A program made the position numbers and the translations under genes. Below, one piece after another: positions 4,291 to 47,571 of a DNA stretch of 64,000 bases (position 1 is its first letter; each line of letters begins with the position of its first letter). The stretch covers positions 17,361-81,360 of the forward strand of contig JAZQBG010000004.1 in assembly GCA_045545595.1 (NCBI GenBank), read 5' to 3'. Origin of the DNA: Bacilli bacterium (GTDB lineage Bacteria; Bacillota_I; Bacilli_A; RF39; UBA660). Under the pieces are notes generated by a model. The model had not been told where the DNA came from. It ran no database searches and was given only the letters and a program-made list of their open reading frames with translations.

Positions 4291-5427
4291 ATGGAAGATA
4301 ATATATTTTCACATATTGACTTTGGTCCATTACAAAAATATTTAGATAATGATGATGTTACAGATATTTCGTATAGTAATGGTGGTCAATTATGGATTAA
4401 ATCTCTTTCTCAAGGTGTGTATCGTGTAGAAGAAAAAGATATTAATAATGCATTAATGGAAAAAATTGCATTCCAATGTTCAAATGCAATGGGTAAAACA
4501 TTTAACATGGCTCAACCATTTTTGGATGCTGAAGGAGAAGAACTTCGTTTAAACTTCGTTCATGAATCCATTGCCAAAAATGGCATTGCTGCTGTATTAA
4601 GAAAAACACCAGCTAAGATAAGACTTGAAAAAGAAAAATTACTAAATGAGAATTATGTAACTCTAGATATACATGACTTTTTAATTGAATGTGTACTTGG
4701 ACACTGTAATATTATTGTAAGTGGTGAAACTGGTTCAGGTAAAACAGAATTTGTTAAATATTTAGCGGCTCATACAAGAGAAAATGAAAAAATAATCACA
4801 ATTGAAGACACTCTAGAACTTCATTTAGATAGAATATTTCCACATAGAGATATAGTTGCGATGAAAACAAATAATATTGCATCATACTCTGAAGTTCTAG
4901 TAACATGTATGAGACAAAATCCTAAGTGGATACTTTTATCAGAAGTCAGAAGTGCGGAAGCAGTTATGGCAGTTCGTAACTCAATATCTTCTGGTCACAA
5001 TATTTTGTCTACAATTCATGCTGATAAAGCGGAGTCTATCCCTACTAGAATGTACAGTTTACTTGAAACTAATATTGATATAAATCAATTTCTAGCTTCA
5101 ATACATAGATATGTTCAATTAGGAGTTCACATAAGAGGTTACTATTCTAAAGAATATAAACGTTTCCAAAGAGAAATTGTTGAAGTAACTGAATTTTTTG
5201 TTGATGACGAAAATAAACCTAAACATAATACAATTTATAGAAAAACTTCTGCTGGAAAGATTACAAGAAAAAATCCTACAAAGTATTTAATTGATTATTT
5301 GGATGCACAAGGAATAGTATTATCTAAATCCGGTATAGAAGAAGAAATTGGACAAGAAAATAATATACAAGAGAAGATTCAACATATAGAAATACCTGAT
5401 GAAGAAATAGAAGAAATAATTATATAG
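4291..5427 (+). CDS. tadA: CpaF/TadA-type secretion ATPase (T2SSE/VirB11 superfamily)
   Basis: Walker A GETGSGKTE, Asp box TIEDTLEL, Walker B WILLSEVR, His box GHNILSTIHA. Confidence 0.85.
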   Translation: MEDNIFSHIDFGPLQKYLDNDDVTDISYSNGGQLWIKSLSQGVYRVEEKDINNALMEKIAFQCSNAMGKTFNMAQPFLDAEGEELRLNFVHESIAKNGIAAVLRKTPAKIRLEKEKLLNENYVTLDIHDFLIECVLGHCNIIVSGETGSGKTEFVKYLAAHTRENEKIITIEDTLELHLDRIFPHRDIVAMKTNNIASYSEVLVTCMRQNPKWILLSEVRSAEAVMAVRNSISSGHNILSTIHADKAESIPTRMYSLLETNIDINQFLASIHRYVQLGVHIRGYYSKEYKRFQREIVEVTEFFVDDENKPKHNTIYRKTSAGKITRKNPTKYLIDYLDAQGIVLSKSGIEEEIGQENNIQEKIQHIEIPDEEIEEIII

Positions 5428-6347: not shown

Positions 6348-7144
6348 TGTGGGAATTATTAATATTAACAGTAATAATTATTGGTATACTATCAATAAAT
6401 GGTGTAATAGATAGCAAAGGATTCTTCCAGGATAATAGTGTATATTTAAAATTATTAAAAGAAGATGACTATGACTTTTTAGTACGTGCTAAATATGGAG
6501 ATAAAGTTGATCCAGAAGTATTATTTACAAAAAGAATAAAAAATGCTGCATTAATATTTGGTGTAATGATGATTTTATTCTTAACGGTTGAAGGAATCAA
6601 TACTTTTCTTAAAATTCTAATTTGTGTTGGAATAGCTATATTTATATTTAAATCGGGTTACTCAAACCTTAGAAGTTATTATAAAAAACATTTGCATGAT
6701 ATCGATTTATTACTTCCTTATTATTTAAAATCATTGGAAGTATTAGTTCAATACTATACAGTTCCTGTAGCAATTCAAAGATCAATAGATGAGGCTCCTG
6801 ATATATTTAAGCCAGGACTAAGGAATTTAACTAAGAAAATTGAACAAGGTGATTCTTCAATAGATCCATATATGGATTTTGCTAAAGAATATCCTGTTAG
6901 AGATTCTATGAGAATGATGAGATTACTTTATCGTCTTGGCTTAGGTTTACAAGAAAATAAAGAAGAACAATTATTACTACTTTCTAAAACAGTATCTAGT
7001 TTACAAAATAAAGCTAGAGAACAAAAATATAAAGAAAGATTAGAAAAAATGCAAAACAAAACTATGATAATGCTAGGTGTAACTGGAGCTGGTGTAATAG
7101 TATTGTTATTAGTATCAATGTTAATGCTTATGACAAATCTTTAA
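6347..7144 (+). CDS. TadC-like polytopic platform protein (T2SSF-like)
   Basis: Same topology as the previous ORF. ATGT overlap coupling. Segment DFAKEYPVRDSMRMMRLL resembles a T2SSF domain. Confidence 0.5.
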   Translation: MWELLILTVIIIGILSINGVIDSKGFFQDNSVYLKLLKEDDYDFLVRAKYGDKVDPEVLFTKRIKNAALIFGVMMILFLTVEGINTFLKILICVGIAIFIFKSGYSNLRSYYKKHLHDIDLLLPYYLKSLEVLVQYYTVPVAIQRSIDEAPDIFKPGLRNLTKKIEQGDSSIDPYMDFAKEYPVRDSMRMMRLLYRLGLGLQENKEEQLLLLSKTVSSLQNKAREQKYKERLEKMQNKTMIMLGVTGAGVIVLLLVSMLMLMTNL

Positions 7145-7160
7145 AATACAAAATAAATTA

Positions 7161-7189
7161 TTGAATAAAAAATATAAATAATATATAAT
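7161..7189 (+). promoter_or_regulatory. consensus-like promoter dedicated to the pilin gene
   Basis: TTGAAT-17 bp-TATAAT. AAGGAGG SD follows at 7211-7217. Confidence 0.6.
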
Positions 7190-7226
7190 GAAATTGTTAA
7201 ATATAAAAATAAGGAGGAAGATATAA

Positions 7227-7439
7227 ATGAAAGAAGCTACTGGAGAATTAAATATGACTGTTGTTACTGTTATAGCAATAGCTGCAATTGCTGGATTATT
7301 TTATGCATTTGTGTGGCCTATGATTCAGTCAGGTATAAAAAATAACACTTGTGCAACATTTGGTGAAGGATATACATATTCTGAAACAAATGGTACTAAT
7401 TGTGTATCATCAGGTGACGGGTTCTGTTGTGCACCATAA
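7227..7439 (+). CDS. small Flp/Tad-type pilin candidate (70 aa) with Cys-rich C-terminus
   Basis: Short charged leader MKEATG followed by a hydrophobic helix (ELNMTVVTVIAIAAIAGLFYAFVW). Four Cys in the tail. Has its own promoter and terminator. Confidence 0.5.
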   Translation: MKEATGELNMTVVTVIAIAAIAGLFYAFVWPMIQSGIKNNTCATFGEGYTYSETNGTNCVSSGDGFCCAP

Positions 7440-7455
7440 TAATCTTTAATACTCA

Positions 7456-7482
7456 AACTTATCAAATTTGATAAGTTTTTTT
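7456..7482 (+). terminator. intrinsic terminator after the pilin gene
   Basis: Perfect 9-bp stem AACTTATCA/TGATAAGTT, 4-nt loop, T5 run. Confidence 0.8.
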
Positions 7483-7485
7483 ATT

Positions 7486-7548
7486 TTATCCACAAAATTG
7501 TTGATAAATAAAGTCTTTTGTTAAAGTTTTGTTGATATTATTAGTGAT
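7486..7548 (+). repeat. cassette-boundary composite repeat R1 (22-bp dyad + 41-bp constant block)
   Basis: TTATCCACAAAATTGTTGATAA, then ATAAAGTCTTTTGTTAAAGTTTTGTTGATATTATTAGTGAT. Similarity to R5 continues about 50 bp into the DUF1016 coding start. Confidence 0.9.
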
Positions 7549-7567
7549 AGTAATGGAGATGAAACTT

Positions 7568-8572
7568 ATGATAGAAAAAGATTTTAAAAATGTAATTACT
7601 GAGGTAAAAAAGCAAATTAGTAATACTAAAATAGAGATATTTCAAAATGCTAATATGAGCTTGTTGAAATTATATTATAATATTGGAAAGATTATTTATG
7701 ATAATTCAGAATGGGGAAATAAATTTATTGATGAACTTGCAGTTGAATTAAAAATATCGTTCCCAAATATCAAAGGATTTTCGGTTAGAAATCTTAAAAG
7801 TATGAAAAAATACTATTTGATTTGTAGTAGGAACGAAAAAGTGCAGACAGCATCTGCACTAATTCCATGGTCTCATAATATGCTTATTTTAGATAAAATA
7901 AAGGATGATAATAAAAGAATATGGTATATGAATGAAACTGCTATTAATGGTTGGAGTTATGATGTTCTTGGATTTCAAATAAAAAGTGATTTATATTCAA
8001 GACAAGTACTAGGAGATAAACCGAACAATTTTAAAACGACGTTAATAAATCCGCAAAGTGATTTAGCGAAAAATATGATGAAAGATCCATATATATTAAA
8101 TTTAACTGAATTAAATGAAGGTTATATTGAAATAGAGTTAGAGTTAGCTATGGTTGAAAAGATAAAAACAGTTTTATTAGAATTAGGTAATGGTTTTAGT
8201 TTTATTGGAAATCAATATAAAATAGAGGTTGGTAATAAAGATTATTATATAGATATGCTCTTTTATCATACAAAGTTACATTGTTATATTGTTGTTGAAT
8301 TAAAGAACACCGAATTTAAACCAGAATATGCAGGAAAGGTTAATTTTTATTTATCGGCGATTGATGCTTCATTAAAAGATGAAAATGATAATCCTAGTAT
8401 TGGTATTATATTATGTAGAGACAAAGATAAAATTTCAGTAGAATATTCACTTATGGATATAAGTAAACCGATAGGAGTAAGTTCATATGAATTATCAAAA
8501 TATTTGCCATCAGACATAATAAAAGAACTACCCACAGAAGAAGACTTAAATTTCCACGTGAATATTGAATAG
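7568..8572 (+). CDS. YhcG/DUF1016-family PD-(D/E)XK nuclease, paralogue 1 (intact)
   Basis: ATG 9 nt after GGAG. The longer TTG-start version is repeat sequence, not coding. Motifs IPWSHN, GWSYDVL, GNGFSFIGNQY and D...VVELK (D/ExK). Confidence 0.8.
   Translation: MIEKDFKNVITEVKKQISNTKIEIFQNANMSLLKLYYNIGKIIYDNSEWGNKFIDELAVELKISFPNIKGFSVRNLKSMKKYYLICSRNEKVQTASALIPWSHNMLILDKIKDDNKRIWYMNETAINGWSYDVLGFQIKSDLYSRQVLGDKPNNFKTTLINPQSDLAKNMMKDPYILNLTELNEGYIEIELELAMVEKIKTVLLELGNGFSFIGNQYKIEVGNKDYYIDMLFYHTKLHCYIVVELKNTEFKPEYAGKVNFYLSAIDASLKDENDNPSIGIILCRDKDKISVEYSLMDISKPIGVSSYELSKYLPSDIIKELPTEEDLNFHVNIE
7840..7860. repeat. intragenic hairpin in DUF1016 paralogue 1
   Basis: AGTGCAGA-cagca-TCTGCACT, an 8-bp stem ending 7 nt before the conserved Trp codon. 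Confidence 0.85.
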
Positions 8573-8604
8573 ATTAATTTAAAATATTTTTAGCCTAAAT
8601 GTAA

Positions 8605-8649
8605 ATAAATAAAGTCTTTTGTTAAAATTTTGTTGATATTATTAGTGAT
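8605..8649 (+). repeat. cassette-boundary repeat R2 (constant block intact, dyad degenerate)
   Basis: ATAAATAAAGTCTTTTGTTAAAATTTTGTTGATATTATTAGTGAT. The upstream dyad is reduced to TTAGCCTAAATGTAAATAA. Confidence 0.85.
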
Positions 8650-8683
8650 GATGTTTTTAATAATATGTGTTGGATTAAATTTA

Positions 8684-8712
8684 TTGTCATTAATATATTT
8701 TTATGCTATAGT
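8684..8712 (+). promoter_or_regulatory. cassette-internal promoter (extended -10)
   Basis: TTGTCA-17 bp-TATAGT with TGc upstream. The block TTTTTATGCTATAGTTTATGAGTGAGGTG is shared with the 9531-9557 leader. Confidence 0.55.
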
Positions 8713-8714
8713 TT

Positions 8715-8915
8715 ATGAGTGAGGTGAGGACTTTGAATAAAAGTTTTAAATTATATCTAAATCAAAATAGTAATAATATAGGCAAAATTAAAAATAATAT
8801 AAAAAAATTACATACAATCGATAAGGATCTTATACCACAATATTTAGATAGTCTTAAAGAAAATTTAAAAATTAAAGAGGTAAGTAAAAATAACGAATAT
8901 TTAAAATATATGTAA
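8715..8915 (+). CDS. small hypothetical protein (about 60-66 aa), first gene of a two-gene cassette
   Basis: ORF follows SD GAGGTGAGGA. The start could be ATG 8715 or the in-frame TTG 8733. Lys/Asn-rich. Confidence 0.4.
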   Translation: MSEVRTLNKSFKLYLNQNSNNIGKIKNNIKKLHTIDKDLIPQYLDSLKENLKIKEVSKNNEYLKYM

Positions 8916-8919
8916 ATTT

Positions 8920-9402
8920 ATGGAATACAGAACGGGTCAATTAATATGGCTTAAAAATATTGATAATTTTTCTGGTCATAAAGTTAAAGAGTCAAGACTA
9001 TGTATTGTTAGAAGAGTATATAACAATTATTTGATTGATTTAAGAACTTTATCAACTATATATTATGATAAAATCAATAAAATTCCAGCACGAAATCTAA
9101 AAGAGGCAAAAAAGGTATTACAAAATTTATTTGAAACGAAAATTAGAGAATCTGGGCAATATGTTATATTTGAACCCGAAAAAGATAATACTATAAATTT
9201 TTCTTTTGCTTTTGGTAATATGATTTCAAAAAAAGTTAATCTTTCAGAGTTTGAGCATGAACCATTATTGGATAAAAATAAAAATCCATTGTTTGTGTCA
9301 GAAGAAAAGGAACTTGAATTATCTTTAAGAGAAGCAGAAGCTATTGCTAAAGATATTGTATATTATTTTAAAATTTCATCAAAGCAATTACAAACTAACT
9401 AA
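8920..9402 (+). CDS. hypothetical protein (160 aa) with possible PemK/MazF-like SH3-barrel N-terminus
   Basis: Begins 4 nt after the upstream stop. N-terminus TGQLIWLKNIDNFSGHKVKESRLCIVRR loosely resembles the GDIxxVxF...RPxLV pattern of MazF-fold toxins. Confidence 0.3.
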   Translation: MEYRTGQLIWLKNIDNFSGHKVKESRLCIVRRVYNNYLIDLRTLSTIYYDKINKIPARNLKEAKKVLQNLFETKIRESGQYVIFEPEKDNTINFSFAFGNMISKKVNLSEFEHEPLLDKNKNPLFVSEEKELELSLREAEAIAKDIVYYFKISSKQLQTN

Positions 9403-9439
9403 AATCAAGTATTTGCAATTTAAATGCTTGATTTTTATT

Positions 9440-9500
9440 TTATCCACAAAATTGTTGATAATTAAAGTCTTTTGTTAAATTTTTGTTGATATTATAAGTG
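9440..9500 (+). repeat. cassette-boundary composite repeat R3
   Basis: TTATCCACAAAATTGTTGATAA, then TTAAAGTCTTTTGTTAAATTTTTGTTGATATTATAAGTG. Preceded by a hairpin plus T-run (9405-9435). Confidence 0.9.
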
Positions 9501-9516
9501 AACACTTATTCCTGTG

Positions 9517-9545
9517 TTGTTTTTCACTTGTTTTTATGATATAGT
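9517..9545 (+). promoter_or_regulatory. cassette-internal promoter (extended -10)
   Basis: TTGTTT-17 bp-TATAGT with TGa upstream. Homologous to the 8684-8712 promoter/leader. Confidence 0.5.
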
Positions 9546-9554
9546 TTATGTGAG

Positions 9555-9734
9555 GTGGAATGGTATGGGGTTATTAAAAAAGTTGCCGGAAGGATTTATA
9601 AAAAAAATAGAATCAAAGTTTCTTCTAGGAAAAATATTGATGATGAAATAATACCAATAAAATGGTCCAAAGATGTCATAAGTGGAAATAAAAAAGCAAT
9701 TGTTAAGTTGGCTAAAGAAGCAAGGAATAAGTAG
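9555..9734 (+). CDS. small basic hypothetical protein (59 aa, GTG start), antitoxin-like position
   Basis: Frame open from GTG 9555 to TAG 9732-9734 (...IPIKWSKDVISGNKKAIVKLAKEARNK). Below the ORF-track size cutoff. Weak SD. Confidence 0.3.
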   Translation: MEWYGVIKKVAGRIYKKNRIKVSSRKNIDDEIIPIKWSKDVISGNKKAIVKLAKEARNK

Positions 9735-9777
9735 TTAGTTTTTAATTACTTATTTTTATTATGTCAGGAGGAATTAT

Positions 9778-10065
9778 ATGTGTAAAATAGGAGATATAAT
9801 TGTAATTAAAAGTTATATTGGTGATGATAGTAAAGTAATTACACAACATTCTTTTATAGTAATTGATGATACACCAAGTCAAATTGGTGGATTAAATTAT
9901 GATTTAGTAACAAATGTTATGTCTAGTCTTAAAAATGAAAAGCATAGAGCAAAAAAATTAAAATTTAAAGAAAATATAGAAATTAAAAGTGATGATCTTA
10001 TCTCTATTTATAAGAATAATAAAATTAGTGATGATATACTTATGGGAGGAGTTAAATGTGAATAA
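9778..10065 (+). CDS. hypothetical protein (95 aa), possible PemK/MazF-fold toxin-like protein
   Basis: SD AGGAGG at 9766-9771. N-terminus KIGDIIVIKSYIGDDSKVITQHSFIVID resembles the MazF/PemK N-terminal strand pattern. Overlaps the next gene start (GTGA). Confidence 0.35.
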   Translation: MCKIGDIIVIKSYIGDDSKVITQHSFIVIDDTPSQIGGLNYDLVTNVMSSLKNEKHRAKKLKFKENIEIKSDDLISIYKNNKISDDILMGGVKCE

Positions 10066-10987
10066 ATCTTTAATTAAAAATGAAGAATTACTCGGTAATT
10101 ATTATAATGAGATTAAAAATAAATTAATTGATAATGAGATATATTTAAAAGTAAAAGATTATTCAAAGGAAAGAAATAAAGTTATTACATATTTTGAAAC
10201 AGGTAAACTTTTATTTGAAGCAGGGAGTGTTTATGGAGAAGACATAATTGGACAATATTCAAAAAAATTGATGATTGAAGTAGGTAAAAAATATAATAGA
10301 AGAACTTTATTTAGAATGAGGCAGTTTTATATGGTTTTCAGCAACTCAAAAGTGTCGACATTGTCGACACTTTTGAGTTGGAGTCACTATACAGAATTAT
10401 TATCTATTAAGGATGAAAATAAACTATATTATTATTTAAATATTTCTATAAGTCAACATATTGATGTTAGAGGTTTAAGAGAAAGAATTAAAAACAAGGA
10501 ATATGAAAGATTACCAGAAAAAACAAAAAATAAATTAATTTATAAAGAAGAATCAAAAGTAGATGATTTGATTAAGAATCCAATAATTATTAAAAATAGT
10601 AATAATTATGAAACAATATCAGAGAAAATATTACAAAAATTAATATTAGAAGATATACCATCATTTTTAGATGAGTTAGGTGATGGATTTACATTTATTA
10701 GAAATGAATATAAGATTAAGTTAGGAGACAAATATAATTATATTGATTTACTTTTATATAATATTAAATATAAGTGTTATGTAGTTATAGAATTAAAAGT
10801 AACTGAACTTAGGAAAGAACATATAGGACAAATTCAAACTTATATGAATTATATTGATAAAAATATAAAGACTATAAATGAAGATAAAACTATAGGAATA
10901 ATAATAGTTAAGAAAGATAATAAGTATATTATGGAATACTGTAGTGATGAAAGAATTATATCTAAGGAATATGAGTTAGTGAGCTGA
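10058..10987 (+). CDS. YhcG/DUF1016-family PD-(D/E)XK nuclease, paralogue 2 (intact, divergent)
   Basis: GTG 7 nt after GGAGGA. Motifs LSWSHY, GDGFTFIRNEY and D...VIELK. Confidence 0.75.
   Translation: MNKSLIKNEELLGNYYNEIKNKLIDNEIYLKVKDYSKERNKVITYFETGKLLFEAGSVYGEDIIGQYSKKLMIEVGKKYNRRTLFRMRQFYMVFSNSKVSTLSTLLSWSHYTELLSIKDENKLYYYLNISISQHIDVRGLRERIKNKEYERLPEKTKNKLIYKEESKVDDLIKNPIIIKNSNNYETISEKILQKLILEDIPSFLDELGDGFTFIRNEYKIKLGDKYNYIDLLLYNIKYKCYVVIELKVTELRKEHIGQIQTYMNYIDKNIKTINEDKTIGIIIVKKDNKYIMEYCSDERIISKEYELVS
10342..10380. repeat. perfect 39-bp palindrome inside DUF1016 paralogue 2
   Basis: CAACTCAAAAGTGTCGACA-T-TGTCGACACTTTTGAGTTG. The 19-bp arms were checked base by base. Encodes NSKVSTLSTLLSW. 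Confidence 0.95.
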
Positions 10988-11001
10988 GTAATCAATTTTT
11001 T

Positions 11002-11064
11002 TTATCAATAAATATATTGATAATTAAAGTCTTTCGTTAAAATTTTGTTGATATTATTAGTGAT
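11002..11064 (+). repeat. cassette-boundary composite repeat R4 (variant dyad)
   Basis: TTATCAATAAATATATTGATAA (both arms changed but still perfectly symmetric), then TTAAAGTCTTTCGTTAAAATTTTGTTGATATTATTAGTGAT. Confidence 0.9.
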
Positions 11065-11096
11065 GATATTTTAATTATTATTGTAATATTTAAATA

Positions 11097-11122
11097 AATT
11101 TTGCAGATGTGTCTGCAAAATT
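11097..11122. repeat. isolated hairpin upstream of the decayed DUF1016 paralogue 3
   Basis: AATTTTGCAGA-tgtg-TCTGCAAAATT, an 11-bp stem. Its core TGCAGA/TCTGCA matches the intragenic hairpin of paralogue 1. Confidence 0.85.
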
Positions 11123-11124
11123 AG

Positions 11125-11995
11125 AAAGAGGAAAATAGGTTAGAAACTACTGATAAAAATTTTAAAATTATTATACATGATATTGCTAATAAAATCAAAA
11201 ATACTCAATTAGAAATATTTCAGAATGCCAATGCAAGTGTATTAGAACTTTATTTTTATATTGGGAAAATGATAGATGAAAAATTTGAATGGGGGTAATA
11301 AGTTTGTAGAACATTTATCGATAGAATTAAAATTAAGATTTCCAAATGCAAAAGGTTATTCACCAAGAAATCTCCGTAATATGAGAAAGTACTATTTATC
11401 AGTAAAAGATAATAGTGAATTAAAAGAAATTTCATTTAAAATACCTTGGTCTCACAATACAATAATAATGGATAGAGTTAGAGATGATAATAGAAAAATA
11501 TGGTATATACAACAAACATATAATAATGGATGGAGTTATGATTATTTAGAAGTTCAAATAAAACGAGACGCATATTCGAGACAGGTTTTAGAGGATAAAC
11601 CTAACAATTTCAAATTAACGTTGTTACAACCACAAAGCTCTTTGGCAAAAGAAATCATGAAGGATCCATATTTTGATGTGGGTGAGTTAAGAGAAAATTT
11701 TGTGGAAAAGGACATTGAAAGTGCGATGGTAGAAAAAATTAAAATTACATTATTAGAATTAGGTAATGGATTTAGTTTTATATCTAATCAATATAGGGTC
11801 ACAATAAATGATGAGGAAAACTTTATTGATTTATTATTCTATTATACAAAGTTACATTGTTATGTTGCAGTTTAATTAAAAAACAATAAATTTATACCTG
11901 AATATGCTGGCAAAACGAATTATTATTTGTCTGCATTAGATGATAATTTAAAAACAGAATATAATAATCCTTCCATTGGAATTATACTAGTTAGA
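11125..11995 (+). pseudogene. YhcG/DUF1016 nuclease paralogue 3, decayed
   Basis: No start codon. +1 frameshift at the G5 run 11291-11295 (EWG|NKF). In-frame TAA at 11873-11875 where paralogues have the Glu of ELK. The 3' end is replaced after ...SIGIILVRNK. Confidence 0.8.
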
Positions 11996-12042
11996 AATAA
12001 ATTGACTTTATTAAAATATTTATTAGATTGGAGGGTTAGAAA

Positions 12043-12945
12043 ATGAAAAGTGATGTAGTAACAACTGAAATAATTGTCAAAGAAAATAAAGTCGGAATTT
12101 TAAAAGTTGGAAATGTTAATTACATCTCGCTAACAGATTTAGCAAAATATCAAAATTCTTCTGATCCATCATTTACAGTTAAAAATTGGTTAAGAAGAGT
12201 AACTACTATAGATTATGTTGGTCTTTGGGAACAAATACATAATGTGGATTTTAATTTGGTCGAATTCGACCAAATTAAAACAGAGTATGGTAAAAATTCA
12301 TTTGCAATGTCTCCAACTCAATGGATAAAAAGAACTAATGCAATTGGTATAATATCAAAAGGTGGGAGATATAGTATTGGAACATATGCTCATCCAGATA
12401 TAGCTTTTGAATTTGCTAGTTGGTTGTCTCCTGAATTTAAGTTATACTTAATTACTGAGTTTGAAAGATTAAAAGTAAATGAGGCATATCAACAAAAGGT
12501 TGATTGGCAAGCTAATCGAATACTTTCAAAATTAAATTATGTAGTTCATACGGATGCAATAAAAGAATACATAGTGCCAACACTTACTGAAAAACAAATT
12601 AAATCAATTTATGCAGAAGAAGCTGATGTTTTAAATGTTGCATTGTTTGGAACTACTGCTAAGGAATGGAGAGACGCAAATCCAGAACTTGCTAAAAGAG
12701 GAAATATTAGAGATTATACTGATTTACTTCATCTAGTTATTTTAAATAATTTACAAAATACTAATGCAGAATTAATAGAAAATAATATTCCACAAAGAGA
12801 AAGATTGATTAGACTAAATAATTCCGCAAAAAGACAAATGAAGTCTTTACAAAATAATAAAAATATACGTGAATTACAAAAACTAAAAGAACAAGTAAAT
12901 AGTGAAAAATATTTATTAGAATCATTAAAACATAAAATTGAGTAA
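12043..12945 (+). CDS. KilA-N domain protein, paralogue 1
   Basis: SD GGAGGG. KilA-N-like N-terminus (NYISLTDLAKY...AHPDIAFEFASWLSPEFKLYL). About 55-60% identical by eye to ORF 46708-47571. Confidence 0.7.
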   Translation: MKSDVVTTEIIVKENKVGILKVGNVNYISLTDLAKYQNSSDPSFTVKNWLRRVTTIDYVGLWEQIHNVDFNLVEFDQIKTEYGKNSFAMSPTQWIKRTNAIGIISKGGRYSIGTYAHPDIAFEFASWLSPEFKLYLITEFERLKVNEAYQQKVDWQANRILSKLNYVVHTDAIKEYIVPTLTEKQIKSIYAEEADVLNVALFGTTAKEWRDANPELAKRGNIRDYTDLLHLVILNNLQNTNAELIENNIPQRERLIRLNNSAKRQMKSLQNNKNIRELQKLKEQVNSEKYLLESLKHKIE

Positions 12946-12959
12946 TCAGTTTTTTTCTT

Positions 12960-13022
12960 TTATCCACAATTTTGTGGATAATTAAAGTCTTTTGTTAAAA
13001 TTTTGTTGATATTATTAGTGAT
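12960..13022 (+). repeat. cassette-boundary composite repeat R5 (perfect dyad)
   Basis: TTATCCACAATTTTGTGGATAA, then TTAAAGTCTTTTGTTAAAATTTTGTTGATATTATTAGTGAT. The spacer is ATTT instead of AAAT. Confidence 0.9.
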
Positions 13023-13041
13023 AGTAATGGAGATGGAACTT

Positions 13042-14038
13042 ATGATACAAGAAGATTTTAAAAATGTAATTTGTAAAATTAAAAATGAAATAAAAACTAG
13101 TCAAGTAAAAACTATGTTAGAAGTAAATAAAAATTTAATTGTGCTTTATTTTAGAATTGGAAAAATTATCTCAGAAAACAGTAACTATGGAAATAAATTT
13201 ATTGAAAATATTTCTAGAGAAATAAAATTAGATTTTTCATATTTAAAAGGATTTTCGCCTAGAAATTTAAGAAGTATGAAGTTATTTTATCAAGAATACA
13301 AGGATGATGAGATTCGGCAACAGCTTGTTGCCAAATTACCATGGGCATAATTTATTTCTAATTGAAAAATTTAAGGATAAGAAAATAAGAAAACTTTATG
13401 TAGAAAAAACAATAGAAAATGGATGGAGTAGAAATGTGTTGGCATTTCAGATTGACACTAAATATCATTTAAGAATTGGAAATAGTTCTAATGATTTTGA
13501 TAATACTATTCCTAGCATTGATACTGACTTAGTTAATAATATAATCAAGGATCCATATATTTTTGACTTCATATCCTTAAAAGAGAATTTTAAAGAAAAA
13601 AAATTAGAAACTGCCATGGTAAACAGAATACGTGATGTATTATTAGAATTAGGTAATGGATTCTCTTTTATTGGAAATCAATATAAGATAACATTAAGAG
13701 ATAATGATTATTACATAGATTTATTATTTTACCATTTAAAACTTAGATGTTATATCTTGATTGAATTAAAAGCAACATGTTTTATTCCAGAGTATGTTGG
13801 AAAACTGAAATTTTATTTATCGATAGTTGATGATGTTATAAAAAATGAAAATGATAATCCTTCTATTGGTCTAATACTGTGTAAAGATAAGGACAAAATT
13901 ACAGCACAGTATGCACTAAAAGATATTGGTAATCCGATTGGCGTAAGTTCATATGAGGTAAACAACCTAATTCCTACAGAAATATTGGATAAATTAACAA
14001 CTGAAGAAGATATTAACATGTATGTGGATATTAAATAG
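13042..14038 (+). pseudogene. YhcG/DUF1016 nuclease paralogue 4, frameshifted
   Basis: Two overlapping ORFs (13003-13350 and 13304-14038). The frame is lost in CCATGGGCATAAT, where PW(G/S)HN is expected. Otherwise close to paralogue 1. Confidence 0.75.
13316..13332. repeat. intragenic hairpin in DUF1016 paralogue 4
   Basis: GGCAACA-gct-TGTTGCC, ending 9 nt before the Trp codon and about 12 nt before the frameshift. Confidence 0.8.
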
Positions 14039-14055
14039 CTTTAATATTTTTTCTT

Positions 14056-14077
14056 TTATCCACAAAATTGTGGATTA
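14056..14077 (+). repeat. terminal dyad R6 (palindrome only, no constant block)
   Basis: TTATCCACAAAATTGTGGATTA. The sequence then diverges from the other repeats. Confidence 0.8.
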
Positions 14078-14116
14078 TTAAAAATTATAATAAACCGGCA
14101 GCCAATACGAACAAAA

Positions 14117-14170
14117 AACAAAATCGACCGGTTTTCTAACAAAATCGACCGGTTTTCTAAAGAAATCGAC
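14117..14170 (+). repeat. tandem 21-bp direct repeats (2.5 copies) upstream of the AlbA_2-type pseudogene
   Basis: ACAAAATCGACCGGTTTTCTA occurs twice, followed by AAGAAATCGAC. Relatively GC-rich, and contains the palindrome ACCGGT. Confidence 0.8.
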
Positions 14171-14216
14171 ATTATTCTTATTAATATAATATACAATAAT
14201 AACAATGGAGGTGCTT

Positions 14217-15653
14217 ATGCAATTAAAAGATTATGAAAAAGTCGAAAGTTCAAATATAGACTTTAAAGAGAAAGTAGAATGTAGTAAACCTAAGAGTTGG
14301 TTAAAATCAGTATCAGCTTTTGCTAATACTAATGGTGGTATTTTATTGTTTGGAGTAAGGGACACTGATTTAAAACCAGTAGGATTAAAGAATATCAATG
14401 AAGATTCCGAAAAAGTTTCTAGATTAATAAACAATAAAATAGTTCCTCTACCAAGATATGAATTAAACACATTTACTGAGGATAATAAAGATTTTATGGA
14501 AATAAAAATTGGCGATGGACCTAGAACCCCATAATATTATGATTCAGATGGTCGAAAAGAAGCATTTATTCGTTCTGGTAATGAAAGTATAACCGCTCCT
14601 AAACATATTTTGGATAACTTGATATTAAAAGGTGAAAATATAACGTATGATGAATTACCTAGTAAATATATGATAGAAGATGTTAGTTTTACATTATTAA
14701 ATGCAACTCTAAAAAAAGAAACAAGAAAAGAAATAAATAAGGATAAAGATTTTATTTCACTAGAATTAATAACAAACGATGGAAAGGTAACGAATGCAGG
14801 ATTACTATTATCTGACCAAGGATTTTTAACTCAATCTAGAATTTTTTGTACTAGGTGGAAAGGATTAATAAAAGGGTCTATATCAGGTGATGCAATAGAC
14901 GATAAAGAATACACAGGAAGCATAATTTCATTACTAGAAAATGCAGAAACTTTTATAAAGAACAATTCAAAAATTAGTTAGGAAATTCAAGGAATGAAAA
15001 GAGTAGAAAAAGAAGATTATCCACTAAGAGCAGTAAGAGAAGCAATGGTCAATGCTATTATTCATAGAGATTACCAAATAATTGGTTCAGAAATTCACAT
15101 AAATATGTTTGATAATAGGCTTGAAATAACATCTCCAGGTGGTATGATAGATGGTAGTTTTGTACAAGATTTAGACATTACAAAAGTATCATCTATTAGA
15201 ATAAATAGAATAATATCAGATATATTTAATAGATTAAATTTTATGGAACGTAGAGGAAGTGGATTAGTAAGAATTGTAGAATCTTATAGTGATACATCAT
15301 TAAAGCCAAGTTTCAATTCAGATATTTCTTCATTCAAAGTTGTTTTTCCAAATAAAAGTTATAATAACACTATAATATCGAACAATATTATTTCAAATGA
15401 AAATATAGTTAATGATGAAGATTATTTCATATTAAAAATGTATAAAAACTTGCCTAAAAATATAAGAAAAAACACATTTGAACAAATTAAAAAAATATTT
15501 CAAAAATATAACTATAAATACAGTTTTAAAAGGGAAGATATTGAAATTTTATTAAACGTAAAGAAAACAAGAGCGATAGATATTATTTCATTAATGAATG
15601 AGAATGATCTAATAGACACTTTAGAACAAACAAAATATAAATTTAAAAAATAA
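14217..15653 (+). pseudogene. AlbA_2 (divergent AAA/Schlafen-like) + HATPase_c_4 putative DNA-binding regulator, with two in-frame stops
   Basis: Three collinear same-frame ORFs separated by TAA 14532-14534 and TAG 14979-14981. Motifs FKE...SAFANTNGGILLFGV and AVREAMVNAIIHRDY. Confidence 0.7.
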
Positions 15654-15713
15654 GAGGCGATTTTTTCAAAATGGCCTCTTATATATTGATAAATATTTTT
15701 GAACAATATTCTA

Positions 15714-15742
15714 TTGAATAAATATTTAAAATAATATATACT
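15714..15742 (+). promoter_or_regulatory. promoter restarting the tadE-like/tadZ-like genes after the insertion
   Basis: TTGAAT-17 bp-TATACT. Confidence 0.45.
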
Positions 15743-15797
15743 AGTTATATAAAGAATACAAGGGATAGTGTGTCCTTTTTAAGGAAGATGATGTTTA

Positions 15798-16265
15798 GTG
15801 AGAGAAGCTATTGGTAGTACATTTTTATTTAATATAATGATAGTATTCATTTTCTTTTTTTCTGCGTTTTTAGCAATAGCTATAAATTATTCACAAGCTT
15901 TTAGAGTTAAAAATCAAATTATAAATTATATAGAACAATATGAAGGGATGAATGAAAAATCAGAACAAGAGATCGTTGATTATATAAGAAACTCTGGATA
16001 CCACAGAGACATTACATGTGATTGTGACACAGGTGGTTCTGGTGGGAATTATAGTTGTGGTAATACAAATGATGATAGAAATGGAGCAAAAGTAAAGTTG
16101 GATAGTGGTAATGAAGCAAAAGGATTATGTATCCGCAAATTAAAAAATGCCAATGATGATACATATTATCGTGTTACAACATTTGTAAAATTTAATTTAC
16201 CTCTAATTGGAGATTTCTTTACTTTTGAAGTAAAAGGCGAGACAAAAATAATAACTAATGATTAA
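15798..16265 (+). CDS. TadE/pseudopilin-like protein (155 aa)
   Basis: Leader MREAIG followed by a hydrophobic helix (STFLFNIMIVFIFFFSAFLAIAI). Same leader style as the 70-aa pilin. Cys-rich ectodomain. Confidence 0.45.
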   Translation: MREAIGSTFLFNIMIVFIFFFSAFLAIAINYSQAFRVKNQIINYIEQYEGMNEKSEQEIVDYIRNSGYHRDITCDCDTGGSGGNYSCGNTNDDRNGAKVKLDSGNEAKGLCIRKLKNANDDTYYRVTTFVKFNLPLIGDFFTFEVKGETKIITND

Positions 16266-28524: not shown

Positions 28525-29631
28525 ATGTTAAGAGCTTATAAATATAGAATATATCCGAATGATATACAAAAAGAACAAATAAATAAAACATTCGGTTGTG
28601 TTAGATTTGTTTATAATAAGGTTTTATATTATAGAAAAGAAACATATGAGAAAGATAATAAAAGTTTAAGTAAAATTGGCTGTAATAATTATTGTAATCA
28701 TGTATTAAAGAGTAAATATGTATGGTTAAAGGAAGTTGATAAATTTGCTTTAACTAATTCTATATATAATATGGATAATGCTTATAATAAATTTTTCAAA
28801 GAAAACGCTGGTTATCCAAAGTTTAAAAGTAAACATAATAATCACAAATCATATACAACTAATTATACGAACGGAAATATAGATGTAGATTTTGATAATA
28901 ATAAAATTAAATTACCTAAATTAAAATATATTAAAGCAAAAGTACATCGTAAATTTAAAGGTATTATTAAGAGTGCAACAATATCACAAGTACCTAGTGG
29001 AAAATATTATGTATCATTATTAGTGGATACTGGCGATATAAAAAGGAAATCTATATCAGATAAAAAAATCGGGATAGATTTAGGCATTAAAGATTTATGT
29101 ATAACATCAGATGGAGATAAGTATGAAAACCCGAAAATATTAAAGAAATATGAAAAGAAAATAGCTAGACTAGGAAGAAGTTTATCTAGAAAACAAAAAG
29201 GAAGCAATAACTTTCAAAAAATAAAACATAAGTTAGCAAAGTGTCATGAAAGAATATCAAACATTAGATGTGATTATTTACATAAAGTAAGTCATAAAAT
29301 AATTAGCGAAAACCAAGTAATTATAACAGAAGATTTACAAGTAAAGAATATGATGAAAAATCATAAATTAGCATCAAGTATAGCAGATGTATCGTGGCAC
29401 GAATTAACAAGACAATTAACGTATAAAGCAGATTGGTATGGAAGAACATATATAAAAGTAGATACATTTTATGCAAGTAGTCAGTTATGTCATGTATGTG
29501 GATATCAAAATAGTGATATAAAGAACTTATCAGTAAGAAGCTTTAAATGTCCAAAATGTGATACATATCATGATAGAGATATTAATGCAGCAAAGAATAT
29601 ATTAAAAGAAGGATTAAGATTAATGGTTTAG
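28525..29631 (+). CDS. tnpB: TnpB (OrfB) RNA-guided endonuclease-family transposase accessory protein
   Basis: Canonical N-terminus [13 protein letters not shown].. and RuvC-like GIDLGIKD. Zn finger CHVCG...[15 protein letters not shown] near the C-terminus. Confidence 0.9.
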
Positions 29632-36862: not shown

Positions 36863-38149
<1,287 letters not shown>

Positions 38150-38756: not shown

Positions 38757-39767
38757 ATGTTGGAAAAAAGCAATACTCAAATGATTAAAGAAATTAAAGA
38801 TGTAATTATTAGTAGTAGAAATAAAATAGCTTATGAAGTAAATAATACAATGCTATTAGCATACTGGAATGTTGGTAGAATTATTGTTGAAAATGAACAA
38901 AATGGAAATATAAAAGCTGAATATGGTAAACAAGTTTTAAAAGAACTTTCAAAAGAATTAAAAAAGGTTTTAGGTTCAGGTTTTTCAGTATCAAATCTTC
39001 AATATATGCGTAGATTTTATATTAAATATCCAAAACAACAGACACTGTCTGTTAAATTGAGTTGGTCTCATTATTGTGAGTTATTAAGTATTGAAAATGA
39101 TGATGAAAGATGTTTTTATGAAAAAGAATGTGTTAATTCAAATTGGAGTGTTAGAGAATTAAAAAGACAATTAGAAACATCATTATTTGAAAGATTATTG
39201 TTATCAGAAGGAAAAGATAATAAGAAAAAAGTTTATGAACTAGCAAAAGTTGGACAATCTTTAACTACTCCAAAAGATATTCTTAAAGAACCTTATGTTT
39301 TTGAATTCTTAGGTATTCCAGAAAATAAACCAATACTTGAAAAAGATTTAGAAAGAAAATTAGTTAAACACATGAGAGAATTTTTGCTTGAATTAGGTAA
39401 AGGATTTATGTTTGTTGGAACACAACAAAGAATAACATTAGGTAATATTCATTATTATGTTGATATGGTTTTTTATAATAAAATTTTAAAATGTTATGTA
39501 TTAATTGATTTAAAAATAGGACAAATGAAACCAGAATATGCTGGTCAAATGAATATGTATTTGAACTATTTTACAGAAGAAATTAATGATGAATCAGATA
39601 ATAAACCTATTGGAATTATCCTATGTAAAAGTAGAAAAGAAATTGCAATGGAATATGCTTTAGGTGGATTATCTAATAATGTATTTGCATCAACTTATAC
39701 TTATTATATACCTAAGAAAGATGTATTAATTAGTGAAGTTGAAAGGATTTTGAAAGAAGAAAATTAA
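38757..39767 (+). CDS. YhcG/DUF1016-family PD-(D/E)XK nuclease, paralogue 5 (intact)
   Basis: SD AAAGGAG. Motifs LSWSHY, NWSVRELKRQ, GKGFMFVGTQQ and D...LIDLK. Confidence 0.8.
   Translation: MLEKSNTQMIKEIKDVIISSRNKIAYEVNNTMLLAYWNVGRIIVENEQNGNIKAEYGKQVLKELSKELKKVLGSGFSVSNLQYMRRFYIKYPKQQTLSVKLSWSHYCELLSIENDDERCFYEKECVNSNWSVRELKRQLETSLFERLLLSEGKDNKKKVYELAKVGQSLTTPKDILKEPYVFEFLGIPENKPILEKDLERKLVKHMREFLLELGKGFMFVGTQQRITLGNIHYYVDMVFYNKILKCYVLIDLKIGQMKPEYAGQMNMYLNYFTEEINDESDNKPIGIILCKSRKEIAMEYALGGLSNNVFASTYTYYIPKKDVLISEVERILKEEN
39037..39053. repeat. intragenic hairpin in DUF1016 paralogue 5
   Basis: AACAGACA-c-TGTCTGTT, ending 9 nt before the Trp codon. Confidence 0.85.
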
Positions 39768-41840: not shown

Positions 41841-43034
41841 ATGGAAGAAAATAAAATGATATTATCACAAAGAATTGTAGATAATGATAATACTAAAGAA
41901 AACGATTTATTCAAAGAATATATTATTAATGTTGAAAATTATTCAAAAACACATATTTTTTCAAATATAGAAAAAGGAATTATATCTACAACATTTAAAG
42001 AATACTTATATAATGTATTTGATGTATCAAATCAATTAGAATTAATAAAAAAAATTAATGGGGAATGGAAATTAATATTAGAAGATGGTATAGATGATTT
42101 TATTTTAGATGAAACTCAAAAAGTTGTGACAATATATTATGGGGATTACAAAATCTTTTATTACGACAAAATGAAAACAAAAAATTCTGCAAACGCCATT
42201 AAAATGTTGTTTAATGATGATAAGGTACCACCTACAAGCCAAATTGCTGATGTCATTGAAAAAATAGCCGATAGATCAGATGCATTAAGTTTTACTATTA
42301 ATGAAAAAAATATTATAGCAAAAAGTATTCCTACAATCTTGATGGATAATAACATTAAATTAGATAAAGATGATATCTTTGATATAAACAAAGTTTCAAT
42401 TCGAGAAGTTATAGAAATTGGGAGAAAAATATTAAAGAATGATAGAACAGTATTGAAGATATTTGGAACAAAAGAAGTTCACAAAGAAGAAACTTGGCAA
42501 CAATATTTTGAAAGATATGGTAATTATTTGTTATTTGGAAATGTACGTTTAGATCCTAAGGTATGTTTAAATAAAGAAAAAACTAAGGAATTGAACGATA
42601 AATACCCAGATATTATTACATGTAATAGATTTGGATTTTTAGATATTATAGAATTAAAAAGATCAGATATGTTTCTGTTTAAATTTGATAATTCTCATAA
42701 TAAATTAGTTCCAACATCGACACTAAGTTCTGCTTTATCGCAATTAAATGGATATTTACAAATTATTCCTTATGCATATGAGACTCAAAAAGCTAAAGAC
42801 CAAGGTTTAGAATGTGCTTCTGGCATGTTATTAATTGGAGATAATGATCATTTAGTTAAAGAAAATGATACTTTAAAAAAATATATGCAAGATAATAATT
42901 TAACTATAGAAAATATAAAGTATGAAGCACAAAAAGAATTAAGAAAATTAAATTATAGTTATAGTCATATGCAAGTTGTTTTATATGATGAATTAATAAA
43001 TACTCTTGAAACATTTATTAATAATATAAATTAA
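41841..43034 (+). CDS. Shedu-like (DUF4263) PD-(D/E)XK nuclease defence candidate
   Basis: C-terminal core YPDIITCNRFGFLDIIELKRSD...LSSALSQLNGY matches the D...ExK...Q..Y layout recalled for SduA/DUF4263. The N-terminal domain is unassigned. Confidence 0.45.
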   Translation: MEENKMILSQRIVDNDNTKENDLFKEYIINVENYSKTHIFSNIEKGIISTTFKEYLYNVFDVSNQLELIKKINGEWKLILEDGIDDFILDETQKVVTIYYGDYKIFYYDKMKTKNSANAIKMLFNDDKVPPTSQIADVIEKIADRSDALSFTINEKNIIAKSIPTILMDNNIKLDKDDIFDINKVSIREVIEIGRKILKNDRTVLKIFGTKEVHKEETWQQYFERYGNYLLFGNVRLDPKVCLNKEKTKELNDKYPDIITCNRFGFLDIIELKRSDMFLFKFDNSHNKLVPTSTLSSALSQLNGYLQIIPYAYETQKAKDQGLECASGMLLIGDNDHLVKENDTLKKYMQDNNLTIENIKYEAQKELRKLNYSYSHMQVVLYDELINTLETFINNIN

Positions 43035-46299: not shown

Positions 46300-46707
46300 C
46301 ATAAATGAAATGTTAAAGATCAATTTTTGAATCATTAATTTAACGTATTTTTCTAATGACATTTAAATTTGAAAACCATTTTATTTGAATAGAATCTCTG
46401 TGGGACTAGAATTTTTTTGAGAAAGTTATCAATAACAATAAAGTGAAAATATTATGTTTTATTTTAAAACACTTAAATTTTTTATTTTTTGATCATTGCA
46501 ATTAACTTTAAAAAGTTAGTTTTTTTATTATGGAATTTTTTAAATTTTACATATTTTCAATATTTGAGCTATTTTGAATACAGAAATGTAAAATTGTTAT
46601 TACAGATTTTTTAATTTTGAATTGCAGAATACTCAAATATATAAGATTATCAATTTGAATTATTTATCTGATAAATTTATAATTCAATCATAAAGGAGAT
46701 GATTTGG

Positions 46708-47571
46708 ATGAAAATTCAAAATTCAGATATTAATTTGAATGTTAAAAATAATTTGATAGGAGTTATGAAAGTTGATGGAGTTGATTACATATCTTTAACA
46801 GATTTATCTAAGTATAAAAATCCTAACAATCCAGCAGATGTTATAAATAAGTGGATGACAAATAAGGATTCATTTGATTTTTATTGTTTGTGGGAAGAAT
46901 TATTTAATCCAAGTTTTAATTTAGCGGAATCTCGCGAAATTAAAATTAATGAGGTTGGGTATAATTCGTTTACAATGTCACCAACAAAGTGGAAAAAAAG
47001 AACAAATGCAATTGGTATATTACCGAGCAGCGGGAGGTATAGTAAAGGATGTTTTGCGCATCCTGATATTGCATTAGAATTTGCATCATGGATAGATACT
47101 AGTTTTAAATTATATTTGATAAAAGAATTTGAAAGATTAAAAACAGATGAAGCTAGAAAAAATGACAAAGAATGGAGTGTTAGAAGAAGTTTATCTAAAA
47201 CTAATTATAAAATTCATACTAATTCAATTAAAGAAAAACTTTTACCAATGCTTTCAAATAAACAAAAGAAGTTAGTTTATTCTGATGAGGCAGACATTTT
47301 GAATGTTGCTTTATTTGGTATAACTGCAAAAGAATGGAAAAAGAATAATCCGAATTTAGAAGGTAATATTAGAGATTATGCAGATATATTACATTTAGTA
47401 GTTTTAAATAATTTAGAAGCAATAAACTCTGAAATGATTTCAAGTGGAATTAATCAAAAAGAAAGGCTAGAAAAACTTAATGATATAGCCATTAAACAAT
47501 TATCTATTCTATATAATGATAATAATATTAAAAAACTAGATAATATTGATAGAATCAATGTGATTAAATAA
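46708..47571 (+). CDS. KilA-N domain protein, paralogue 2
   Basis: ATG 9 nt after GGAG. DYISLTDLSKY...AHPDIALEFASWIDTSFKLYL. Paralogous to 12043-12945. Confidence 0.7.
   Translation: MKIQNSDINLNVKNNLIGVMKVDGVDYISLTDLSKYKNPNNPADVINKWMTNKDSFDFYCLWEELFNPSFNLAESREIKINEVGYNSFTMSPTKWKKRTNAIGILPSSGRYSKGCFAHPDIALEFASWIDTSFKLYLIKEFERLKTDEARKNDKEWSVRRSLSKTNYKIHTNSIKEKLLPMLSNKQKKLVYSDEADILNVALFGITAKEWKKNNPNLEGNIRDYADILHLVVLNNLEAINSEMISSGINQKERLEKLNDIAIKQLSILYNDNNIKKLDNIDRINVIK

Follow-up and report, generated by a model that had tools for sequence, protein, structure and literature searches.

An array of five accessory gene modules, each preceded by a copy of the same composite repeat, lies within a Tad-like pilus/type IV secretion gene cluster in the genome of an uncultured gut Bacilli bacterium. 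The stretch analysed (the window) is 64 kb long with a G+C content of ~25% and nearly every gene on a single strand, and coordinates are those of the window unless a related locus (L followed by a number) is named. The array is real and varies between strains, and the common boundary of its accessory modules evolves in concert. The locus is a cargo hotspot of an unusual kind; a new cassette-capture system is the less likely reading. The explanation that we prefer, at about even confidence, is a strain-variable cargo islet in which the boundaries are portable terminator/operator/promoter units that also provide homology for recombination. The earlier note on this DNA described gene cassettes bounded by a composite repeat and inserted inside a Tad-like locus. 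An array of separable modules inserted in a pilus/type IV secretion system (T4SS) cluster is borne out by syntenic relatives with 0, 1 or at least 2 modules at the same place.

Five near-identical boundary units and a sixth, palindrome-only copy mark off the five modules between positions 7486 and 14077. A full unit consists of a run of T residues (T-run), a 22-bp palindrome and a 41-bp block, and the six copies are in register, as determined by direct reading and with a repeat finder. The copies are as follows.

7486..7548, + strand: R1, palindrome TTATCCACA-AAAT-TGTTGATAA (7486-7507) and 41-bp block (7508-7548).
8587..8649, + strand: R2, decayed palindrome position (8587-8608) and perfect block (8609-8649).
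9440..9502, + strand: R3, palindrome identical to that of R1 (9440-9461) and block (9462-9502), with a hairpin and T-run (9403-9439) just before it.
10981..11064, + strand: R4, mini-terminator remnant CTGAGTAATCA and T-run, perfect variant palindrome TTATCAATA-AATA-TATTGATAA (11002-11023) and block (11024-11064).
12941..13022, + strand: R5, TGAGTAATCAG and T-run, perfect palindrome TTATCCACA-ATTT-TGTGGATAA (12960-12981) and block (12982-13022).
14056..14077, + strand: R6, palindrome alone, TTATCCACA-AAAT-TGTGGATTA, with no block.

The five recognisable palindromes have the form TTATC-N12-GATAA, and the five blocks carry 0-2 mismatches. All six copies are where the earlier note placed them, with a degenerate dyad in R2 and only the dyad in R6, and its description of the spacer (AAAT in R1, R3 and R6, ATTT in R5) and of R4 and R5 as perfectly symmetric with different arms also holds. 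The composite repeat, given there as 63 bp, is present but reaches left into the T-run, making it 70 nt long, and in R4 and R5 it additionally includes a common mini-terminator remnant, TGAGTAATCA(G)TTTTTT. A 38-nt core of the block occurs 5 times with ≤2 mismatches, compared with 0.00 expected from shuffled sequences, and TTATCCACA occurs 6 times in the 64 kb against 1.1 expected, with 5 of the 6 occurrences inside the array. The five modules are accompanied by N+1 palindromes.

Related loci were found via homologues of the TadC-like protein and of the product of DUF1016-B, the second of four DUF1016 genes in the array (A to D), and five kinds of allele were recovered. In L013 to L020 (TadC 85%), the terminator of the pilin-like gene is followed by one perfect palindrome (TTATCCACAAATTTGTGGATAA), TTTTT and the promoter-like site of the next gene, with neither block nor module. 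L021 and L022 (88%) carry the palindrome, a diverged block, one DUF1016 gene and a mini-terminator, and have no recognisable palindrome at the right junction; the sole DUF1016 protein encoded at the site in L021 shares 82% aa identity with that of DUF1016-B in the window. L105 (82%) has a T-run fused to the right half of the palindrome, then a diverged block and a small-gene module. L113 (DUF1016-B 93% aa) includes palindrome and block, DUF1016-B, mini-terminator, palindrome and block, and the intact start of DUF1016-C, and hence at least 2 modules, in the same B to C order as in the window. In L108/L109 and L112 (78-79%), the pilin-like gene is only ~35-40 bp from the next gene, and neither terminator nor palindrome is present. 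Given that the palindrome is absent from these distant relatives, the single copy in L013 could be the target as it was before any insertion, or else a scar from the loss of a module. The distance from tadC to the next large gene is usually 0.7-1.25 kb across 67 related loci, versus 9.2 kb in the window. A comparison of strains for variation exactly at the repeats, as the earlier note had proposed, reveals that the number of modules at one point is 0, 1, at least 2 or 5, depending on the allele.

Searches with hidden Markov model (HMM) profiles, built for the block alone and for the entire boundary, detected no copy away from this site, either in the window or in ~1.2 Mb of related loci. Exact-pattern scans for block and palindrome gave 4 matches in GTDB species genomes, all due to chance with the rest of the unit missing, and 0 matches in metagenome contigs and, with three patterns, in IMG/VR; the first exact patterns were too strict to catch the diverged blocks of L021, L105 and L113. 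BLAST searches of plasmids and phages with the region and the unit found nothing, as did protein-guided scans of IMG/VR with TadC and DUF1016-B. Among the matches listed by a TadC-alignment scan of metagenomes, relatives were ≤62% identical and none had the palindrome or the block.

The modules marked off by these boundaries have the following content.

7568..8572, + strand: module 1, intact DUF1016-A encoding a YhcG-type PD-(D/E)XK nuclease (PADLOC candidate PDC-S02).
8684..9402, + strand: module 2, its own TTGTCA-17-TATAGT promoter-like site, then open reading frames (ORFs) of 66 and 160 aa with no family match.
9555..10987, + strand: module 3, a fusion of a 59-aa ORF, a truncated phrog_21589 ORF (9778-10065) and intact DUF1016-B (10058-10987).
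11137..12945, + strand: module 4, DUF1016-C pseudogene (11137-12001; start lost, frameshift) and a KilA-N gene (12043-12945; PADLOC candidate PDC-S22).
13043..14038, + strand: module 5, DUF1016-D with a frameshift and a stop near 13350; the first 125 bp of the module match module 1 at 90-97% identity.

Four DUF1016 paralogues, a KilA-N gene and two small gene pairs had been reported here and are all present, but DUF1016-C and DUF1016-D are pseudogenes. The 95-aa ORF at 9778-10065 is the truncated phrog_21589 gene fused to DUF1016-B. The small module proteins have no match in Pfam or PADLOC and only one in PHROG. The two small-gene pairs are not paralogues, and their proteins are unrelated to each other. 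MazF-like motifs in these proteins were an impression that no search supported, and were set aside.

The boundary is found in front of DUF1016-A, DUF1016-B (in L021 and L113), DUF1016-C, DUF1016-D and both small-gene modules. This bears on the scenario that the earlier note itself had named as fatal to its view, namely that the repeat is the duplicated 5′ region of a DUF1016 gene that was tandemly duplicated in situ and then diverged. Such an origin would account for the same orientation of the paralogues A, C and D, and tandem duplication likewise gives N+1 repeats. However, the product of DUF1016-A is only 55-60% identical to those of C or D and 35% identical to that of B, whereas boundary copies in the window are 91-100% identical. 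DUF1016-A also has homologues of 87-89% identity in other metagenomic genomes, at other chromosomal sites, and the four homologue contexts examined (84-88% aa) have housekeeping neighbours, homology that begins at the ribosome-binding site, and no block. The existence of relatives with B alone (L021) or with no module (L013) is a further difficulty. Simple tandem duplication was rejected because the boundary fronts unrelated genes, the paralogues have diverged and the homologues of A that were examined lack the boundary, and we consider it very improbable.

The boundaries are homogenised within a genome and divergent between genomes. In L113, palindrome and block have the same sequence in both boundaries. 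When the orthologous boundaries between B and C are compared, ~150 nt of surrounding non-coding DNA is ~96% identical in L113 and the window, and nearly all differences within the boundaries themselves fall in the palindrome arms and the 7 nt at the centre of the block. Modules 1 and 5 form a mosaic, with 88-97% identity over 7475-7600 (~125 bp) and 45-75% thereafter, and the tract of high identity comprises the T-run, palindrome, block, 5′ untranslated region and the first ~30 nt of the ORF. Concerted boundaries together with this mosaic are the pattern that gene conversion between short direct repeats produces; site-specific exchange would leave an abrupt junction at its core site.

The block weakly but significantly resembles the T-run and palindrome that precede it, forming a ~31-bp tandem sub-repeat (p = 0.0005-0.01 in R5, L021 and L113), and this explains the third half-site that had been noticed 30 bp downstream of the dyad. 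Two parts of the block, TAAAGT(C/A)T and (T/C)GATATTAT, are kept across alleles, and the 14 nt between them are fixed in length and variable in sequence, behaving as a promoter spacer would. TGaTATTAT is constant in the window and L113, with CGaTATTAT in L021 and L105, and TGnTATTAT is the best-conserved candidate -10 element in the block. The extended -10 proposed earlier, TGTTAAAAT, is not conserved between genomes, with TTCCACAAT in its place in L113; the portion of the block that never varies is GATATTAT. The ATG of modules 1 and 5 is only 60 nt from the palindrome, and the block ends ~20 nt before GGAG-N7-ATG, such that any promoter belonging to these modules must lie within the block. 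A sigma-28 (FliA/SigD) promoter, TAAAGTTT-N11-GCCGATAA, was considered, and both elements of the block, TAAAGTCT-N14-GTTGATAT (GTCGATAT in L021), are consensus-like. This assignment was rejected because the spacer is 3 nt too long in every allele.

In the module-free allele of L013, the palindrome plus TTTTTAATTT scored as a second terminator 3′ of the pilin terminator. Palindromes of the array have TTAAAGTC after the stem, and none was flagged as a terminator in the scan. Folded as RNA, the units had z-scores between -0.2 and -2.2, with no convincing conserved structure beyond the palindrome. In R1 and R3 the left arm could pair with the third half-site instead, but this option was discarded as it is not conserved. 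An Rfam search over 7000-16000 (E≤1) returned only sub-threshold chance matches.

The claim that the arms co-vary and that dyad symmetry is under selection comes down to a single copy, R4. Among six distinct variants, 94% of cells are paired and 3 are unpaired, R4 accounts for both of the two-sided changes, and a result as good was reached by 38 of 500 shuffles. The symmetric double change in R4 favours selection for a hairpin, or templated mutation of a quasi-palindrome. The perfect palindrome with 17-bp arms inside DUF1016-B is a mere quasi-palindrome in the L021 orthologue, indicating that symmetrisation does occur in this lineage. In L113, both arms are altered at position 5 of the putative DnaA box (TTATTCACA and TTATACACA), which creates a T.T mismatch and keeps the fit to the consensus TTATNCACA, and this favours recognition by a protein over selection for a hairpin. 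Loss of the palindrome at R2, in L105 (where a half site is left) and at the right junction of L021 shows that it is not essential for module retention.

As pointed out in the earlier note, the arms match the DnaA-box 9-mer. They do so without a mismatch on both sides in R5, L013, L021 and L113 and on the left side in R1, R3 and R6, which makes this a putative box. The right arms of R1, R3 and R6 have 1 mismatch to TTATNCACA, and each arm of R4 has 2. One alternative, which we consider improbable, is that the palindrome is a regulatory operator, in which paired inverted DnaA boxes and a weaker third box would bind DnaA or another dimeric regulator. The modules would then be co-regulated, for example with replication status, and the repeat would be kept for regulation rather than for rearrangement. 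The exact consensus in these arms is consistent with this, as are the change in L113 at a degenerate position of the box, where pairing is lost and both boxes are kept, and the over-representation of TTATCCACA. The palindrome also overlaps the -35/upstream region of the candidate promoters, and the third TGTTGATAT, 30 bp downstream, overlaps the -10. On the other hand, R4 has two mismatches per arm, and the palindrome is lost in R2 and L105 where the blocks are intact, so the box is dispensable. Selection on an operator alone also leaves unexplained why all 41 positions of the block are nearly identical within a genome and divergent between genomes, and the match is a post-hoc recognition of one famous 9-mer. 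A role as a DnaA-type operator is compatible with either the cargo islet or site-specific recombination.

For the cargo islet, we infer promoter and terminator activity, a recombination pathway, a defence function and a palindrome-binding factor, as follows. Modules would have piled up between the pilin-like gene and the gene that follows it in the conserved Tad-like/T4SS cluster. Their cargo is mainly candidate phage-defence nucleases, along with a KilA-N protein and small gene pairs, and several modules are already in decay. The portable boundary would be made up of the T-rich tail of the preceding terminator, the DnaA-box-like 22-bp palindrome and the 41-bp block ending in (TG)nTATTAT, and would shield each module from read-through and supply its own transcription start. 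The palindrome, at the -35/operator position, may be a protein-binding site or a hairpin that gates the promoter. Gene conversion would keep the direct repeats alike within a genome, and the repeats could serve as substrates for gain, loss, fusion and exchange of modules. Homologous recombination would suffice for this, and a dedicated integrase would be unnecessary.

Several points weigh against this explanation. Repeats of 60-90 bp are short substrates for RecA-dependent exchange, and with only five kinds of allele recovered the dynamics are deduced from few samples. A scan for sigma-70 consensus sites found 84 against 78 expected, is uninformative at ~25% G+C and does not single out the block, and the preferred -10 has a poor -35 (GTCTTT). 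Modules 2 and 3 carry promoter-like TTGTCA/TTGTTT-17-TATAGT sites of their own, which would make the block redundant there as a promoter. PDC-S02 and PDC-S22, to which the DUF1016 and KilA-N proteins are assigned by PADLOC, are candidate families and not validated defence systems. Finally, N+1 sites and a solo palindrome in empty alleles are equally the signature of site-specific integration.

Site-specific integration is the strongest of the alternatives, though we regard it as unlikely. The 22-bp palindrome would be the core site at which a recombinase encoded elsewhere integrates and excises circular modules of palindrome, block and cargo. Candidate enzymes are the serine recombinase encoded at 36923-38149 or a host enzyme, and the array would resemble those of integrons or dif modules without an adjacent integrase. 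The count of N modules and N+1 palindromes, the last without the module-borne block, fits well, and exactly one palindrome is kept at the site in module-free relatives. Since distant relatives have no palindrome, it may have come with the first module. The boundary is common to modules of unrelated content, the resemblance of the block to a degenerate T-run and palindrome at ~31-bp spacing is what would be expected of accessory subsites, and a serine recombinase is encoded in the window. Against this, none of the window, L021, L105 and L113 has a recombinase gene in or close to the array. The central 4 bp vary (AAAT, ATTT and AATA, with AATT in L013), and such differences normally block strand exchange. 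Decay is tolerated (R2, the half site of L105 and the right junction of L021), the high-identity tract of modules 1 and 5 extends past the palindrome into the ORF as is typical of homologous exchange, and the order of B and C is the same in the window and L113. A more specific version, in which the DnaA-box palindrome is the core site of an undescribed cassette integration system of AT-rich gut Bacilli and a recombinase acting in trans captures modules of palindrome and block at the solo site by the pilin gene, is less likely again.

Recombinase-type genes detected among the scanned ORFs of the window are limited to that serine recombinase and a TnpB gene (28525-29631). The serine recombinase, the nearest to the array at 23 kb, has a Recombinase domain and is of the large-serine type. 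A Pfam scan of main-strand ORFs ≥90 aa found no phage-integrase/tyrosine recombinase domain in the 64 kb. The earlier observation that no integron integrase, attC, CRISPR or IS signature is present agrees with these results, in that nothing of the kind was detected at the array and no tyrosine integrase among the scanned ORFs. The suggested likeness to Hin/Gin half-sites is confined to the outer TTATC, and the site is 22 bp rather than 26 bp. hix/gix sites are 26 bp long, with a 2-bp core flanked on each side by a 12-bp half-site (TTATCAAAAACC), and have an enhancer and a small serine invertase next to them; the boundary does not have this composition. The TnpB gene, of the IS605 OrfB type, is directly 3′ of a VirD4-like gene and is followed by a gene for a Bro-N protein.

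Independent landings of a miniature inverted-repeat transposable element (MITE), a repetitive extragenic palindromic (REP)-like element or another dispersed intergenic repeat were also considered, as the unit is short, intergenic, palindromic and multicopy. All copies in the 64 kb fall within one 6.6-kb stretch in one orientation, with none elsewhere in the window or in the ~1.2 Mb of related loci. Alignment revealed neither terminal inverted repeats across the unit nor duplicated target sites, and the sole transposase-related gene, TnpB, is 14 kb away with no similar hairpin near it. This origin is the least credible of those considered.

The architecture is nearest in logic to defence-banking integron arrays and to dif modules, and lacks the defining features of both. 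Like sedentary integrons and clusters of attC sites lacking integron integrases (CALINs), it is a one-directional tandem array of small unrelated modules, each with a short structured repeat. Its repeats are homogeneous within a genome and different between genomes, comparable to species-specific attC families, and its content is strain-variable and enriched for defence-type cargo. CALINs hold anti-phage and toxin-antitoxin cassettes (bioRxiv 10.1101/2024.07.02.601686). Unlike integrons, the array has neither IntI nor the attC architecture (R′′/L′′/L′/R′ with GTTRRRY). Inspection of the aligned boundaries showed a palindrome, TTATCCACA/TGTGGATAA, and no RYYYAAC partner for the single GTTAAAA in the block. 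The repeat is moreover at the 5′ end of a module and includes promoter-like sequence, whereas attC is at the 3′ end of promoterless integron cassettes. To our knowledge, integrons are essentially unknown in the AT-rich Bacilli lineage of the host.

The Xer-dependent pdif modules of Acinetobacter are bounded by 28-bp sites (11-6-11) composed of XerC and XerD half-sites in alternating orientation (PMC6449649, PMC13141974). They share with the array the bounding of accessory modules by short dyad sites, the lack of an adjacent dedicated recombinase and a content that varies among relatives. In contrast, the site of the array is a near-palindromic 9-4-9 arrangement (22 bp), is always in direct order and is accompanied by the 41-bp block. 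The sequence of its palindrome is unrelated to the dif consensus.

Fixed cargo and defence hotspots of mobile elements and conjugative clusters likewise have conserved flanking core genes and variable accessory genes at one intergenic point. Such hotspots also occur in P2/P4 prophages and SXT integrative and conjugative elements (ICEs). We know of no described hotspot with an internal partition by a concertedly evolving boundary of palindrome and promoter. The array has the make-up of a defence island or cargo hotspot, with variable accessory genes between conserved core genes and cargo from candidate defence families. In the Rickettsiales amplified genetic element (RAGE) of Rickettsia, a DUF1016 gene is found between traU and traW, making DUF1016 a passenger in T4SS clusters there too (PMC4316617). 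The array also resembles the vsp, vlp and vsa loci of Mollicutes, AT-rich relatives, in its tandem genes of one orientation with near-identical upstream cassettes kept by recombination. In Mycoplasma, these are surface lipoprotein loci that undergo phase or antigenic variation, some with a dedicated recombinase and a single expression site. The array differs in that its genes are cytoplasmic nuclease-type cargo and that a promoter-like block is present at every module.

A CpaB-like gene, a T2SSE ATPase gene, two membrane-protein genes and the pilin-like gene (70 aa) precede the array, and genes for T4SS_pilin-like proteins, a VirB4-like ATPase, a CHAP/SpoIID hydrolase and the VirD4 coupling protein come after it. 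The features adjoining it are as follows.

7227..7439, + strand: pilin-like small gene, 70 aa, the final conserved gene ahead of the array (from the ORF list).
7455..7485, + strand: pilin terminator hairpin AAACTTATCAAA/TTTGATAAGTTT and a T-run that merges into R1 (from reading of the sequence).
14117..15653, + strand: extra inserted DNA not bounded by a repeat, consisting of a 21-bp tandem repeat (14117-14170) and a fragmented AlbA_2/HATPase_c_4 gene (14205-15653).
15714..16265, + strand: promoter-like TTGAAT-17-TATACT (15714-15742) and the next conserved cluster gene (15798-16265), where homology to module-free alleles restarts.

The pilin-like gene has no Pfam or PHROG match, and its orthologues, of 69-77 aa, are 3′ of the TadC-like gene in L013 and L021. 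The L013 homologue of the terminator hairpin was flagged as terminator-like in the terminator scan. The terminator stem (window 7455-7478; L013 11115-11143; L105 ~4646-4668) contains TTATC...GATAA (CTTATCAAATTTGATAAG), the outer pentamers of the boundary palindrome, and the variant arms of R4, TTATCAAT/ATTGATAA, are closer to this stem than to the other palindromes. The array had been taken to end at 14080. As the broken AlbA_2/HATPase_c_4 gene lies between R6 and the next conserved gene, the insertion runs to ~15710, where homology to the module-free allele restarts. The DNA from 14117 to 15653 is missing from L013 and L021. Its tandem repeat, AACAAAATCGACCGGTTTTCT, is present in 2.6 copies directly 5′ of the broken gene, and may be a putative operator array for the AlbA_2/HATPase_c_4 regulator-like protein.

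Further defence-type genes in the window are a fifth intact DUF1016 gene (E; 38757-39767), a gene for a Shedu SduA-like protein (41841-43034) and a second KilA-N gene (46699-47571). In relatives, single DUF1016 genes are found among housekeeping genes (as in L005, with features at 1826-2725 and 9509-10897), once with an ORF6N gene directly 3′, an adjacency that echoes the pairing of DUF1016-C and KilA-N in the array. Most DUF1016 paralogues contain an in-frame perfect palindrome directly 5′ of the (P/S)W(S/G)H codons, conserved in position and not in sequence. Examples are at 7840-7860 (A), 10345-10381 (B), within 38757-39767 (E), at L112 11621-11688 and in L005 and L009, and include AGTGCAGA-CAGCA-TCTGCACT, the 17-bp arms in B, AACAGACA-C-TGTCTGTT and GGTGCGACA-G-TGTCGCACC. 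These palindromes suggest a possible role at the DNA or RNA level, or templated mutation.

A different cargo islet, with SocA_Panacea and DUF1016 genes, was observed one gene further downstream in L112 (9250-11310; GCA_947624635.1, CANQLF010000066.1). A GC-rich hairpin (GGTSGCWCACTGWGCSACC), repeated with compensatory changes in its stem, and an 81-nt block (96% between copies) stand in front of each of its modules, and some hairpin copies share flanks with the palindrome inside the DUF1016 gene of that genome. Homology between the L112 boundary and that of the window was rejected, as there was no nhmmer match and pairwise scores were in the range of shuffled sequences, bar one common 11-mer; the parallel is one of architecture.

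Defence and addiction genes cluster at hotspots, and apart from integrons and a few mobile elements it is largely unclear how they get there. The present locus, from a poorly studied gut lineage, is a compact and legible example in which one intergenic point holds no module, a single one or several in related genomes. Should the boundary work as a portable terminator/operator/promoter, it would show how passengers enter an operon-like secretion cluster without disturbing it. If it is instead a recombination site, the array would represent a capture system of the integron kind in Firmicutes-type bacteria, for which no such system has been established, and a bank of defence genes built inside a conjugation/pilus cluster.

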